Below are positions 1 to 5,879 of a stretch of 5,879 bases of DNA, in pieces. The translations under genes and the position numbers were made by a program. Source of the stretch: Octopus sinensis (Eukaryota); NCBI RefSeq assembly GCF_006345805.1, contig NW_021829754.1:1-5879 (forward strand), read 5' to 3'. The notes under the pieces were generated by a model. That model was given only the letters and a program-made list of their open reading frames with translations. It did no database searches and had not been told where the DNA came from. Positions within the stretch are counted from its first letter, which is position 1; each line of letters begins with the position of its first letter.

Positions 1-314
1 TTTTAGTCGAGCAAATCGACCCCAGGACTTATTCTTTGTAAGCCTAGTACTTATTCTATCGGTCTCTTTTGCCGAACCGCTAAGTGACGGCGACGTAAAC
101 ACGCCAGCATCGGTTGTCAAGCAATGCCAGGGAGACAAACACAGACACACAAACATAGACTCACACACACACACACACACACACATATAGATATATATAT
201 ATATATACATATATACGACGGGCTTCTTTCAGTTTCCGTCTACCAAATCCACTCACAAGGCTTTGGTCGGCCCGAGGCTATAGTAGAAGACACTTGCCCA
301 AGGTGCCACGCAGT

Positions 315-325
315 GGGATTGAACC
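315..325 (-). promoter_or_regulatory. RNA polymerase III B-box of SINE copy 1
   Basis: GGTTCAATCCC fits the consensus GGTTCRANNCC and lies 32 nt downstream of the A-box, a tRNA-like spacing. Confidence 0.85.
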
Positions 326-357
326 TGGAACCATGTGGTTCATAAGCAAGCTACTTA

Positions 358-368
358 CCACACAGCCA
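358..368 (-). promoter_or_regulatory. RNA polymerase III A-box of SINE copy 1
   Basis: TGGCTGTGTGG fits the consensus TRGCNNARYGG with one mismatch and lies ~10 nt from the element 5' end. Confidence 0.8.
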
Positions 369-378
369 CTCCTACGCC

Positions 379-578
379 TTTATACTTTATTTTTTTTATC
401 TTTTACTTGTTTCAGTCATTAGACTGCGGCCAGGCTGGGGCACCGCCTCGAAGAATTTTCATTCGAATGAATTGACTCTAGGATTTAAATTTTTGAAGCC
501 TGGTACTTATTCTATCAGTCACTTTTACCGAACTGCAAAGTTACGGAGACGTAAAACGGTGGTGGGGGACAAGCAAAG
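379..578 (-). mobile_element. 3' tail of SINE copy 2 (same family), ending in an A-rich terminus
   Basis: It shares blocks with 1-150, for example aagcctggtacttattctatcagtc vs aagcctagtacttattctatcggtc and ccgaactgcaaagttacggagacgtaaa vs ccgaaccgctaagtgacggcgacgtaaa, with a ~20-bp deletion. The minus strand ends AATGACTGAAACAAGTAAAAGATAAAAAAAATAAAGTATAAA. Confidence 0.85.
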
Positions 579-662
579 ACACACACACACACACACACAC
601 ACACATCTCTCTCTCTCACTCTCACTCACTCACTCTCTCTCTCTCTCTCTACACAACACACA

Positions 663-698
<36 letters not shown>
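579..698. repeat. Compound microsatellite (CA)n-(CT)n/(CTCA)n-(CA)n-(TA)n, the internal tract of SINE copy 2
   Basis: Read directly. It occupies the same position relative to the SINE tail as the 160-213 tract in copy 1. Confidence 0.9.
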
Positions 699-700
<2 letters not shown>

Positions 701-888
701 CGGAAAGTTTACGAAAATAAACAAAAGACGAAGGCAGGTGGAGTACAAACAAACAAATGTATTAGTATAGCGCTCAGGAATAGAAAAAGTCTTTTACGTT
801 TCGAGCCTACGCTCTTCGTCAGAAAGATACACAGAAAAAAACAAGGAGAGAAACAAAGAGAGAAAAAAATGCGTGTAGGAGCTAACGA

Positions 889-893
<5 letters not shown>
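699..893 (-). repeat. Direct repeat / pseudo-LTR copy A
   Basis: Runs aacggaaagtttacgaaaat ... gcgtgtaggagctaacgatctat and is near-identical to 920-1108. It carries a private 12-bp duplication (aaacaaggagag/aaacaaagagag, 839-862). Confidence 0.95.
790..827 (-). ncRNA. Minimal type I hammerhead ribozyme, intact catalytic core
   Basis: Minus strand reads UCUUU-CUGACGA-A-GAGC-GUAG-GCUC-GAAA-CG-UA-AAAGA. Stem I is UCUUU/AAAGA (5 bp), the core is CUGANGA, stem II is GAGC/GCUC with a tetraloop, then GAAA, a palindromic ACGU in place of stem III, and a GUA cleavage triplet (predicted cut between 795 and 794). Confidence 0.85.
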
Positions 894-919
<26 letters not shown>

Positions 920-921
<2 letters not shown>

Positions 922-1108
922 CGGGAAGGTTTACGAAAATCAACAAAAGAGGAAGGCAGGTGGAGTACAAACAAACAAATGTATTAGTATGGCGCTCAGG
1001 AATAGAAATAGAAAAAGTCTTTTACGTTTCGAGCCTACGCTTTTCGGCAGAAAGATACACAGAAAGAAACAAGGAGAGAAAAAATGCGTGTAGGAGCTAA
1101 CGGTCTAT
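920..1108 (-). repeat. Direct repeat / pseudo-LTR copy B
   Basis: Runs aacgggaaggtttacgaaaat ... gcgtgtaggagctaacggtctat and is separated from copy A by (TA)n at ~891-920. It carries a private 6-bp duplication (aataga x2, 1001-1012). Confidence 0.95.
1018..1055 (-). ncRNA. Minimal type I hammerhead ribozyme, degenerate copy
   Basis: Minus strand reads UCUUU-CUGCCGA-A-AAGC-GUAG-GCUC-GAAA-CG-UA-AAAGA. It is identical to 790-827 except for core A6->C and a G->A change breaking the first stem II pair. Stem I arms, ACGU and the GUA site are intact. Confidence 0.75.
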
Positions 1109-1210
1109 CATGGCGTTCTGACTTCAGGCAGAAGTCAGAGGTCAGACGTTAGACGCTAGAGGGATAGTAGGGGAGACAACAGGGTCAAGTGACTTCACCC
1201 CAACACGAAG

Positions 1211-1362
1211 GTGCGTGTGTGTATAAGAGAGTATGTATGTGCGTGTGAAAGAGGGCTGGTGGTCTGGACGTGTGTATGTATGTATGTGTGGGTGTGAAGA
1301 TATGGGGATGGGTGTGTGGGTGGTGTGTTGTGATATGATATGTGTATGTGTGTGAAGGTGTA
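1211..1362. repeat. Degenerate (GT)n/(GTAT)n-rich low-complexity tract
   Basis: Read directly: gtgcgtgtgtgt, gtatgtatgt, gtgtgggtgtg and similar. Confidence 0.7.
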
Positions 1363-1580
1363 ACAAAGATGTACTCGCTTTAATTGATTAATGAAAGTAT
1401 CATTGCACAGAAACCGTTTTCGTCAGATGACCGCATAGATTTCACACAGAAAGGACAAACTACTCTAACATATTCGGATCTCCAAATATTTACATTGATT
1501 CTGCTGCTAGATCGACCTAACAAGGTGCCTCAATTTAAGTACCTAATTAAACCTTAATCTTAATTATATATATGTATGTA

Positions 1581-1737
1581 TACGATTGGCTTCTTTCAGT
1601 TTCTCTCAACGAAATTCATTCACAAGGCTTTGGTCAGCCCTAGTTGATAGTAGAAGACACTTGCGCAATGTGCCACTGCAGGGGACTGAACCCGTAACAA
1701 TGTCGTTGGAGAGAAAGGTTCTTACCACACAGCCATG
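1581..1737 (-). mobile_element. 5' head and body of tRNA-derived SINE copy 2 (more diverged)
   Basis: A-box TGGCTGTGTGG (1735-1725) and B-box-like GGTTCAGTCCC (1692-1682). Shares blocks with 214-378: ggcttctttcagtttc, tcacaaggctttggtc, atagtagaagacacttgc, cttaccacacagcca. Confidence 0.88.
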
Positions 1738-2805
1738 AGACAGTAAGGTGTGATTTGGCGTAAATCTGGCCGGTTTTTCGTCAAGATCTAGCTAATCTTC
1801 TAAAGCTCATTAGCTAATCTAGCTAGTCTTGTAAATCTAGCTAGTCTTGTAAAAGTCTTGTATGATCTGAAGACGGACATATTTGATTGCTGTTTCTAAT
1901 AACTCTAGCTACGATGTAGAGATCGTCTGCGCGTTATTTGAAGAGAGACACATCCTGTTGATATTTCCAATAGCTGTAGCTACCATGCAGAGGTCTCCCT
2001 TGATGACTGCTACATACATAAGACAGTAAGATTTGATTGAAAGAGAGATTTGATGGCTATTTCTACCAAGCTCAGCTGGAATGTGGAGTCGTCTGCGCGT
2101 GGTTTGAAGAAGACGAACGTATTCCGTTCCTATTTCTTATAGGTCTACCATGTAAATATTTCGCTTGTTAAGTCATACATACATATATACATTCATAAGA
2201 CAGCAAAGTATGATTTAAAGGGATATTTGGTTGCTATTCATTCCAAATTGAGTTGAAATGTAGAGTCGTCTGCGCGTGATTTTCAGAAGATAGATTTGGT
2301 TGCTATTCGTAATAGGTCTAGCTACCTTGAAGAGGTCTCTCTTCATGACTCCTACATACGTATATATACGTAAGACAATAAAGTGTGAGTCAAAGGGAGA
2401 TTTGGTTGCTATTTCTACCAAAATATCAGTTAAAATATAGAGTCGTCTGCCCGTGATCTTCAGAAGACAGTTTGGTTGCTATTTCTAATTAGGTCTAGCT
2501 ACTTCGTTACTACATACATACATACTTATATACATACTACATACATACATATATATATAAGACTAGCGTTTAATTTGAGAGAGATTTAGCTGCTATTTCT
2601 ACCCAATTTTAGACGCACGTACAGGACACCCTTATTGGCACATACGTACATAGAGACATTCACAAGACAATAAAGGTATAATTCGAGCGGCTTTAGCTGC
2701 TGTTTCTCTCATATTTATTTACCGTGTAGCGGTCTCCTTCATTGGTTTACACATACACATATACATACAAACACAAGACGATGGGGCGTGATTTCATAGA
2801 GATTT
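1736..2805. repeat. Degenerate ~177-bp tandem (satellite/minisatellite-like) array
   Basis: tcgtctgc(g/c)cgt recurs at 1923, 2089, 2266 and 2443 (spacings 166, 177, 177). (t/c)aagac...gattt recurs at 2019, 2196, 2371, 2558, 2663 and 2774. An atttggttgctatttcta-like motif occurs about twice per unit. Confidence 0.85.
1816..1851. repeat. Perfect 18-bp tandem duplication (aatctagctagtcttgta x2) with degenerate flanking copies
   Basis: 1816-1833 equals 1834-1851. Partial copies lie at ~1787-1804 and ~1854-1862. Confidence 0.9.
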
Positions 2806-2811
2806 ATGTCT

Positions 2812-2812
<1 letters not shown>

Positions 2813-2842
<30 letters not shown>
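2813..2842. repeat. (TA)n microsatellite
   Basis: Read directly. Confidence 0.95.
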
Positions 2843-2845
<3 letters not shown>

Positions 2846-3123
2846 TTCTTTACATTCTTCCATTGTATTATGGTCAGTTATGGTCAAGACTGGTCAGTAA
2901 TAATACATTTTCTTCGTTATTGTTATTAGTTGGTGTGAATAGCAGAGATGAGGTAATATTTTTCCCCGGCAGACTGTCGGACGGAGGTCAGGGAGTCGCA
3001 GCGGCGTTAGCGGTGGTGAAGGCGGTGACGTGGGCCCTGGCGGCGGCTACAACGGGGATGGTGGTCACAATAGAGCAGCGTCAATGGTGCTGTTGGTATT
3101 ACTGTACGACAAAAGGCTAGGCG

Positions 3124-3237
3124 ATATGTATGTGTGTATATATGTGTATATATATATATATATGTATGTACTGTATGTATCATCCTAATGGTCATCATAT
3201 TTGGTCGAGCATGCTGTGACATATATACATACATACA

Positions 3238-3268
<31 letters not shown>

Positions 3269-3354
3269 TACATATACACATATTTTTTATACCATATACA
3301 TATAATATATACATATACAATATATACACATATACATATATAAATATATATATA

Positions 3355-3398
<44 letters not shown>

Positions 3399-3526
3399 TA
3401 TACATATACATATATAATATATATATATCCCTATACACATATTATACATATACATATATATATATATATATACATATATATAGGCATTCATATATATATA
3501 TAGTATCTATCTATCTATTACATGTG

Positions 3527-3577
<51 letters not shown>

Positions 3578-3612
3578 CATAAAACATATGAGACACTAGT
3601 CTATCTCATATA

Positions 3613-3672
<60 letters not shown>
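3124..3672. repeat. Interrupted (TA)n/(TACA)n microsatellite field
   Basis: Read directly, with short unique interruptions. Confidence 0.9.
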
Positions 3673-3676
<4 letters not shown>

Positions 3677-3777
3677 CACGTTACGTATGATGGTCTGGGA
3701 GCGGAGCTGGGAAAGTTCGGCAGGCAGCCATATTTGATTGTGATATCTAAACAGTAACATCAAACGCGAAAACCTAA

Positions 3778-3905
3778 TTTCTTTCATTTTCTTTTTTCGT
3801 TTTTTCCCTTCCTTCCTTCCTTCCTTCCTTTGTTCCTTCCATCCTTCATCCTTCCTCCTCCTCCTCCTCTTCGTCTTCCTTCTCTTCTCATTTTTCTTCT
3901 CGTTT
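3778..3905. repeat. Polypyrimidine tract with (TTCC)n, (CCT)n and (CTT)n
   Basis: ccttccttccttccttccttcc, cctcctcctcctcct; almost purine-free on the + strand. Confidence 0.9.
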
Positions 3906-3920
3906 ATCAACTCCCATATC

Positions 3921-3998
3921 GTTACTGTTGTTGTTGTTGTTGTTGCATTTGCGATCGTGGTTGCGTGTGTGGCGGTGCTGTTGGTGGTGGCGCTGTTG
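3921..3998. repeat. (GTT)n and degenerate (GGT/GGC)n trinucleotide repeats
   Basis: tgttgttgttgttgttgttg followed by ggcggtgctgttggtggtggcgctgttg. Confidence 0.8.
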
Positions 3999-4486
3999 TA
4001 TGTATATATATATATATTATATATATATGTATATATTATGTATATATGTATGTTATATATATATATAATGTATATATCTATGTATATATATTTATATATG
4101 TATATATATATGTATATATATATATGTATATATATATATGTTATAATATATGTTATAATATATATTGGATATATATATAGATGTATATATATATAATATA
4201 TGTATATTATATATATGTATATATATATATATATGTAATATATATATATAGTATGTATATATATATGTATAATATATATGTATGTATATATATATATGTT
4301 GTATATGTATTATAATAGTATATTATATGTATATGTATATATATAATATGTTATATAATGTATTATATATATATATGTATGTATATATATATTATATATA
4401 TATATGTATATATATATATCTGTATGTATATATATATATGTATGTATATATAATATGTATATATATTATGTATATATATAGTATAT
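3999..4486. repeat. Interrupted (TA)n/(TATG)n microsatellite field
   Basis: Read directly. Confidence 0.95.
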
Positions 4487-4506
4487 CGTGTTTGTTCCGG
4501 CTGATT

Positions 4507-4635
4507 TTGTTGTTGTTGTTGTTGTGTGTGTGTGTCTGTGCGTCGTTCTCTTTGTTGTGTTCTTATTATAAATAACAATGTTGTGCTTGTTCTCGTTATC
4601 GTCGTGGTCGGCGTTCTTCTTGTTCTTATTAATAT
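4507..4635. repeat. (TTG)n, (TG)n and degenerate GTT/GTC/CTT trinucleotide low-complexity sequence
   Basis: Read directly. Confidence 0.7.
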
Positions 4636-4675
4636 TGTATACGAGCTTCCTAAATGCAGATATAGTCTCAAACAT

Positions 4676-5180
4676 TATATATATATATGTGTATATATAT
4701 ATATATGTGTGTGTGTATATATATATATGTGTGTATATATATATGTATGCGTATATATATGTATATATATATGTATGTAGGTATATATATATATGTGTGT
4801 ATGTATATATATATATGTGTATCTATATATATATGTGTACGTATATATATGAGTGTATATATATATGTGTATATATATATGTGTGTATATAAGCATGTAT
4901 CAACATGTAGACATACGTAAATGTATGTGTCTGTGTGTATACATATGTGTGTGTTTTTATATATATATATATATATATATATACCATTATGCATGTGTAG
5001 TCGTGTGTGTATATATGTATATGTATGCACATGGATGTTCATATCCATATATATATATATATATATAGATATTATATATATACGTGTGTGTGTGTATGTA
5101 TAACGATGTATAAGTTTGTGCAAATACATATGCTCGTGTGTGTGTGTGTGTGTATGTGTGTGTCTTTCTACCTGAGTATG

Positions 5181-5226
<46 letters not shown>
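4676..5226. repeat. Compound (TA)n/(TG)n microsatellite field ending in pure (TG)n
   Basis: Read directly; pure (TG)n at ~5188-5226. Confidence 0.95.
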
Positions 5227-5229
<3 letters not shown>

Positions 5230-5332
5230 GAGAGAGTAATTATCGAAAGTGTCCATAGTAAAAACGACGATAACATTGAAAAACTTCCTCCCGTTTTTTG
5301 CTTTGTATTTTCGCTTATTCTTCGCCGCTGCC

Positions 5333-5433
5333 ACGATGACGATGACGGCAACTAGCGATGACGACGACGACAGCTAACGATGACGACGACGACGATCATA
5401 ACGACAATTATGATGATGACGATGATAATGATG
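5333..5433. repeat. Degenerate (GAC/GAT)n trinucleotide repeat
   Basis: gatgacgatgacg...gacgacgacgac...gatgatgacgatgataatgatg. Confidence 0.85.
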
Positions 5434-5498
5434 TGAAGAATATGATCTGAACTTTTTTCACTTTTCGCAGTAGCTAAACAAACCGTCACACATATATG

Positions 5499-5587
5499 TA
5501 TCTATCTATCTTCTATCTATCTAGCTAGCTATCTCTATATATCTATCTATCCCTATCTGCCTCTCTGTAGCACTGTGTGTCTGTCTG

Positions 5588-5645
<58 letters not shown>

Positions 5646-5737
5646 CGTCTGCTTGTCTGTCTATCTATCTAGCTAGCTAGCTAGATATGTATGTATGTAT
5701 GTATGTATGTATCTATCCATCTGTCTATCTATCTATC

Positions 5738-5783
<46 letters not shown>

Positions 5784-5827
5784 CTACTATCTATCTATCT
5801 ATCTATCTCTGTATCTATCTATCTATC
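5499..5827. repeat. (CTAT)n [GATA-type] tetranucleotide array with (CTGT)n, (CTAG)n and (GTAT)n variant blocks
   Basis: Read directly. Confidence 0.95.
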
Positions 5828-5879
5828 AACATATCTGTCTCTCAGTGAATCACTTTATCTATCGACCCACTTCCCTCTC

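Follow-up and report, generated by a model that had tools for sequence, protein, structure and literature searches.

The window, a stretch of 5,879 nucleotides of Octopus sinensis DNA (contig NW_021829754.1, positions 1 to 5,879), carries a minimal type I hammerhead motif of a Penelope-like retroelement (PLE) family in which core position 6, an A in the window copy, is U in about 97% of otherwise perfect genomic copies. The explanation that we favour, with somewhat more confidence than doubt, is that U6 is the normal core of this family, that the A6 of the window copy is a mutation acquired after insertion, and that the U6 ribozyme still cuts slowly when two copies are paired, probably with the help of a protein.

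Read on the minus strand from 827 to 790, the motif consists of UCUUU (stem I), CUGACGA, an extra A, GAGC-GUAG-GCUC (stem II), GAAA, CGU, A17 and AAAGA, exactly as described in an earlier note, which had recognized all elements of a hammerhead in order within 38 nt (Table 1). The core fits the CUGANGA of the minimal hammerhead ribozymes (min-HHRs) of metazoan PLEs, stems I and II comprise 5 and 4 bp (within the 3-7 bp of that class), G10.1-C11.1 and an extra base after A9 are present, and the 3′ part, which reads GAAACGUA in copy 1, conforms to GAAANNUH with palindromic positions 15.2-16.2 and without a loop III. The scissile bond lies between 795 and 794. The pattern and folding statistics of these 38 nt are modest: the core pattern matched once in the window (0.10 expected) and also in 10 of 200 shuffled sequences, the folding energy was not beyond that of shuffles (z −1.32), and the covariance-model search that the earlier note had advised came back empty, with no hammerhead found by the Rfam models at E ≤ 10 in either the whole window or positions 740-880. 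Therefore, the case for a hammerhead rests on the family and not on the 38 nt.

Table 1. Features of the two element copies and their hammerhead motifs in the window (strand: −, minus;., none assigned).
Feature	Position	Strand	Evidence or remark
(TA)17 at 3′ end of copy 1, likely insertion target	666..699	.	
Copy 1: 3′-terminal 191 nt of the pLTR, 5′-truncated	700..890	−	40 scored genomic matches, 86-100% identity (the 100% match is copy 1 itself); common 3′ end at (TA)n, variable 5′ ends
Minimal type I hammerhead motif, copy 1	790..827	−	Sequence; pattern test; 13,947 genomic anchor matches
Parts of the copy 1 hammerhead	stem I 827-823 with 794-790; core 822-816; extra A 815; stem II 814-803; GAAA 802-799; A17 at 795	−	
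Palindromic ACGU at positions 15.1-16.1, predicted to pair as stem III with a second ribozyme copy	796..799	−	Sequence; self-duplex worth only −3.7 kcal/mol; commonest letters the same in 7/7 subfamilies
Core position 6	819	−	A here; U in 11,935/12,329 otherwise perfect copies; U in 96.0-99.9% of contig depth in four runs
(TA)15 separating copies 1 and 2	891..920	.	
Copy 2: ~450 nt of 3′ UTR + pLTR, 5′-truncated	921..1372	−	Family matches start ~1372; 88% over 424 columns to ORF-linked L101; 86% to copy 1
Damaged hammerhead motif of copy 2: position 6 is C (1047) and G10.1 is replaced by A (1042)	1018..1055	−	

In a 158-nt context, stems I and II of the window copy seldom form (P 0.01 and 0.06; 0.55-0.76 in a young copy), and the minimum-energy fold of two strands of the motif is not the active dimer. 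In the monomer, U6 is predicted to pair with A15.1, hiding the palindrome (P 0.42-0.98); an inactive fold created by U6 is only a lead, since the A6 motifs of sister families hide their palindrome too.

The family itself was traced to a retroelement by walking upstream in longer copies until a coding region was reached. A genome search with the endonuclease part of this region gave 15,111 first-look candidates, 150 of which were scored, and 20 stretches were retrieved, chosen among the candidates with the longest open frames. The hammerhead motif stands on both sides of the ORF, and so in both pLTRs, in 7 of these 20. One such locus (L092) has two repeats, 96% alike over 795 columns, around a single ORF of 1009 codons that matches RVT_1 (E = 1.3e-7), contains the DKG motif as PADKGG and ends in a C-terminal GIY-YIG endonuclease, the domain match to the latter being weak and under Pfam's cut-off (E = 0.0078). 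The element's protein also has a CX4CxxC linker, within the CX2-5CxxC pattern, and the CCHH residues of the endonuclease, and the element shows partial-tandem pLTRs, 5′ truncation and microsatellite targets. The definitions given in the available text of PMC8557442 put such an architecture in the C-terminal EN+ Neptune or Nematis type. Three further loci (L255, L260 and L271) encode proteins 47-57% identical to that of the window family and bear the published hammerhead of a Neptune element from Acropora, so Neptune appears the most likely clade from these sequences. The earlier note's reading of a minimal type I hammerhead, with an additional base following A9 and a palindrome for stem III, in the pLTR of a Penelope-like element is borne out by the pLTR-ORF-pLTR copies, and the placement in a PLE pLTR is as good as certain. 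A reading of the two adjacent window copies as a non-LTR retrozyme was rejected, as they are truncated ends of an ORF-bearing element.

Several other arrangements were seen among the loci retrieved. Some copies (L170, L174 and other loci) extend ~30-40 nt beyond the end of the pLTR into the 5′ region of the element; these overrun copies resemble the PLE ‘tail’ that has been linked to an internal start of reverse transcription (PMC11167929). Inverted pLTR copies that bear the hammerhead lie beside full elements (L108, 7185-7337; L255, L256, L260 and L271), an arrangement described for PLEs. At L037 (~1126-1560), a reverse transcriptase fragment is fused straight to the 3′ UTR and the rest of the ORF is skipped, which makes it an internally deleted copy. 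Near family copies there are also a frame that by eye resembles a mariner-type transposase (L020, 263-889, plus strand) and a reverse transcriptase fragment of a distant PLE, 24% identical to the window family (L004, 2043-2850, plus strand).

Across the genome searched for family copies (G000, 2.72 billion bases), 12,329 copies fit the pattern exactly outside position 6, a count that excludes copies with other changes in the pattern; 11,935 of them have U at this position (~97%), 115 have A (0.9%) and 279 have C or G, with G in 10 of the first 100 listed of this last class. An anchor of stem II plus GAAACGU, which leaves the first core free, had 13,947 matches (none for the reversed control), and U6 was found in 99 of the first 100 listed. 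When copies were picked without any ribozyme letters in order to remove anchor bias, U was present in 111 of 115, C in three, G in one and A in none; this sample pooled 30 old copies found by their flank pattern, minus five truncated in or before the motif, with other ribozyme-blind picks. The motifs beside the longest open frames are likewise U in 26 of 27 and C in the remaining one, with A in none. The earlier note's core reading, CUGACGA, thus stands for the window copy but not for the family, whose core is CUGUNGA.

The rare A6 copies have the properties expected of decay. Flank T has turned into C in 1.10%, A in 0.44% and G in 0.34% of cells, and the A:C ratio at position 6 (~0.46) fits this neutral decay (0.44% vs 1.10%). 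On a tree of 173 copies, built with the ribozyme columns left out from a sample deliberately enriched in A6, the 54 non-U tips at position 6 require 38 changes (shuffled mean 48, minimum 41), while position 7 takes 18 (shuffled 83) and position 17 takes six (shuffled 47), so positions 7 and 17, with far fewer changes than when shuffled, mark subfamilies and A6 does not. The A6 tips are slightly more clustered than in any shuffle (38 vs a minimum of 41), which runs against a post-insertion origin; we put this down to sampling, as the A6 copies came for the most part from older subfamilies, so that slight clustering is expected. Since A6 copies turn up across the subfamily tree, at a frequency close to the neutral T>A rate and with all four position 7 letters among them, the A6 of the window copy is very probably a T>A mutation that followed insertion.

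Outside the window family, A6 is the rule. A generic A6 pattern had 9,072 matches in the same genome (413 in the control), and most of those listed belong to sister families that share stem II but have a 3-nt loop and a stem I of GUUU/AAAC; U6 combined with a 3-nt loop is rare, at 75 matches, mostly deletions within the window family. Among 80 related loci from metagenome contigs, a search with position 6 free found 19 motifs in 15 loci, and A was present in 19 of 19. The distribution of these sequences indicates that U6 is derived and that A6 is the ancestral state in the sister families. The closest protein relatives of the element are ~55% identical. L172-L201 represent at least two PLE-like sister families, which combine A6 cores and the same stem II with loops of 3 nt, and whose 3′ ends at (TA)n are homologous; further, unrelated minimal hammerheads occur in L005, L104, L176 and L188.

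Within the window family, the motif has been kept as subfamilies succeeded one another. Seven subfamilies were distinguished, with a spread around their commonest letters of 1.9% to 12.6%, and the commonest letter differs between them at 1 of 31 constrained core and stem columns, the outermost letter of stem I, versus 50 of 142 flank columns (p = 1.4e-4, a guide only, as subfamilies are not independent). In this comparison of core and flank conservation, which the earlier note had proposed as a test of its reading, the core is the better kept. U6 is retained in all seven subfamilies; at position 7 the commonest letter takes four states, and at position 17 it is A or U in 7/7 and never G, these being the two places in the core where the published consensus permits variation (N7, H17; PMC7151607). 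No change between subfamilies is seen in loop II or the extra A either, so the constraint on the motif is wider than catalysis alone needs. At position 7 (window 818), the lineage went through three or more changes (U/C, G, A, C, U), with none at its neighbours; this turnover is above the expectation from the 35% of flank columns that changed, possibly as a result of rate tuning.

There are no compensatory stem changes within the family; among 11 hand-picked rows from five families, 3 of 9 stem pairs change on both sides, in rows that had already passed a stem filter, and the change of a stem I pair from C-G to G-C in a sister family is also found in rows chosen by core alone. By eye, no conserved partner of loop II near stem I was seen in the alignments.

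Data from other organisms show the same preference at position 6. A young copy is nearly unchanged in five organisms. In four sequencing runs aligned to the window copy, one of which may stem from the window's own species, the share of U in contig depth at position 6 is 99.9, 96.7, 96.0 and 98.3%; position 7 shows every other letter, and for position 17 U is the sole alternative listed. In one of these organisms (D), depth is ~300,000 over the motif and ~100 in the flanks; the motif is a conserved island with U6 amid diverged surroundings.

The copies in the window are atypical of this family. The motif of copy 2, absent from the earlier note, has lost the closing pair of stem II. Given their 86% likeness and their separate places in the tree, copies 1 and 2 probably inserted independently and mutated independently at position 6, with copy 2 probably entering the same microsatellite as copy 1; (TA)4+ is found within 45 nt of the aligned end in 140 of 173 family copies. 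With two truncated copies, one of them damaged, the locus is probably inert.

Other features of the window lie around these copies. Four very common interspersed repeats (1-135, 215-380, 380-565 and 1560-1745) are each present in 59-69 of 321 loci, with 80% likeness between 198-368 and 1565-1735; we take them to resemble tRNA-derived octopus SINEs, and ARAGORN found no tRNA. A degenerate tandem array at 1876-2760 repeats every 177 bp at 2176-2502, shows sub-spacings of 70/106 bp and has no match among the 321 loci compared. The segment directly upstream of copy 2 (1372-1560) has weak matches (76-84%) in one locus, L154; its likeness by eye to an endonuclease remnant was rejected when 120 related PLE proteins gave no tblastn match to the window.

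The explanation favoured here would work as follows. Transcription from the upstream pLTR would yield an RNA with two motifs ~4.5 kb apart, whose ACGU palindromes could pair to form stem III, and cleavage after position 17 would then release a unit-length RNA late in the cycle. By lowering the unaided rate, U6 would let uncut RNA survive for translation and copying, and the ribozyme would be a slow one that needs a partner copy and probably also the element's protein. Retention of cleavage in vivo by the U6 form seems rather more probable than its loss. Counting against it are the near-invariance of A6, a ~100,000-fold slower rate in an A6C hammerhead, the weakness of minimal PLE hammerheads and the inactive fold predicted for two strands. 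The fuller proposal, that an active U6 hammerhead class, changed at a position regarded as invariant, has been fixed throughout the history of a still-young, high-copy animal retroelement, with a brake released by its own protein or by Mn2+, and forms a pool missed by CUGANGA searches, is put forward tentatively and with slightly more doubt than belief.

The most serious competitor, which we consider unlikely but well worth weighing, is that the U6 motif does not cleave and descends from an active A6 ribozyme as a folded RNA, kept as a site at which the RT-EN protein binds or is positioned. Changes of A6 strongly lower activity (the text available from PMC3088659; PMC7151607), a PLE hammerhead still allows insertion in vitro after catalytic mutation (PMC11167929), more than 12,000 family copies arose with U6, and loop II and the extra A are likewise fixed. 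However, the only repeated changes are at positions 7 and 17, which are free for catalysis, the commonest letter at 17 is never G, and G8, G12 and the unpaired core are fixed across subfamilies in which 35% of flank columns changed.

Two other readings carry much less weight. It is improbable that the constraint acts on DNA, with the 38 nt overlapping the pLTR promoter or an endonuclease recognition site and the hammerhead shape surviving as a relic: a promoter and start site do lie in PLE pLTRs, as stated in excerpts of PMC8557442 and PMC6765202, and there is almost no compensatory stem change within the family, yet the conserved island matches the borders of the motif (contigs of other organisms have their highest depth there and their loose ends at its edges), the sister family swaps a stem I pair, and the changes that are tolerated obey hammerhead rules. 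Even less probable, and largely refuted, is that canonical A6 marks the functional form of an active sub-lineage, with the U6 copies as its dead descendants. The ancestral A6 of sister families and the many A6 copies returned by a search with the window copy would fit such a lineage, but that return is unrepresentative because the search is biased toward the query's rare words, none of the 27 ORF-adjacent motifs or the 115 ribozyme-blind copies has A, and A6 copies, with every letter at position 7, are dispersed over the tree.

Cleavage by PLE hammerheads is weak, one of them depends on the protein of its element, and one review-style discussion raises the question whether they are simply parasites of the element. 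The window family offers a natural experiment on the role of these ribozymes, in which seven successive subfamilies kept the core and stems with U6 and changed at positions 7 and 17. Should the U6 form cleave, both the consensus for hammerheads and the standard descriptor are too narrow, and elements recorded as having no ribozyme deserve re-examination; should it not, the family clearly exemplifies a ribozyme fold that has been retained for a function other than catalysis. In either case, only the mutant ~1% of this family is within reach of a CUGANGA descriptor, which demands ^cuganga where the family core has U6. There is also a caution for the reading of single copies, as the eye-catching canonical copy was the exception.

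Full-text literature searches brought up, among their listings, no report of a U6 PLE hammerhead or of the window family, and no kinetics of a U6 hammerhead were found in the literature searched; variant surveys may bear on the matter. The largest survey of such hammerhead variants is reportedly that of Lunse et al. in 2017. Relaxed cores were used by Arkhipova et al. (2017), according to the passages available from PMC8557442.

The nearest known relatives are the min-HHRs of metazoan PLEs (Cervera and de la Pena, 2014; PMC4209133), which are also of type I with palindromic positions 15.2-16.2 and no real stem III, have an extra base between 9 and 10.1, G10.1-C11.1 and a NUH triplet, and occupy both pLTRs as well as thousands of dispersed truncated copies. 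The difference lies in the core, which is CUGUNGA in the window family and a required ^cuganga in the published descriptor; all 56 of 56 published PLE representatives carry A6, but the descriptor forced that (PMC4209133 supplement). The only core change reported in that study is U3-A8, and cephalopods are not among its listed hosts. Even with A6, minimal PLE hammerheads, having no stem III, show no activity as monomers and weak cleavage as dimers (PMC4209133). The Acropora digitifera Neptune hammerhead (PMC4209133 Table S1, Fig. S3) has a near-identical layout with a 4-bp stem II ending GCUC-GAAA-CGU, and differs in A6, in loop II and stem I, and in a C at position 17.

Other retroelement hammerheads are more distant. 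The PAc hammerhead of Poseidon from Anolis carolinensis, which cleaves only with the element's protein, shares with the window family a place in a PLE pLTR, AT-rich targets and a short tail past the pLTR in some copies (PMC11167929). PAc belongs, however, to a Penelope/Poseidon clade without the zinc-finger linker, and its ribozyme overlaps the start of the ORF, whereas that of the window family lies several hundred bases upstream. Catalytic mutants of PAc still insert in vitro, and no reads ended at the cleavage site in the anole element (PMC11167929). The animal non-LTR retrozymes, as presented in the available parts of PMC7229834 and bioRxiv 10.64898/2026.07.22.740005, consist of short tandem type I units that the two window copies resemble in looking like a dimer; unlike them, the window copies derive from an autonomous element as its truncated ends, have (TA)n between them, differ in length and are only 86% alike.

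A natural pyrimidine at core position 6 has a precedent in the C6 hammerhead of phage Bcep176 (PMC7151607 and the available text of PMC3088659). The activity of this natural C6 ribozyme is low but real, according to that text of PMC3088659, and good in Mn2+ (PMC7151607); in another hammerhead, A6C lowers the Mg2+ rate ~100,000-fold at 0.3 mM (PMC7151607). The phage case is a single sequence with C and not U, and is not of the minimal dimer type, whereas in the window family U6 is fixed in a high-copy animal retroelement. The hammerhead class is known, and U6 in a PLE family is a variant of it rather than a plain member.
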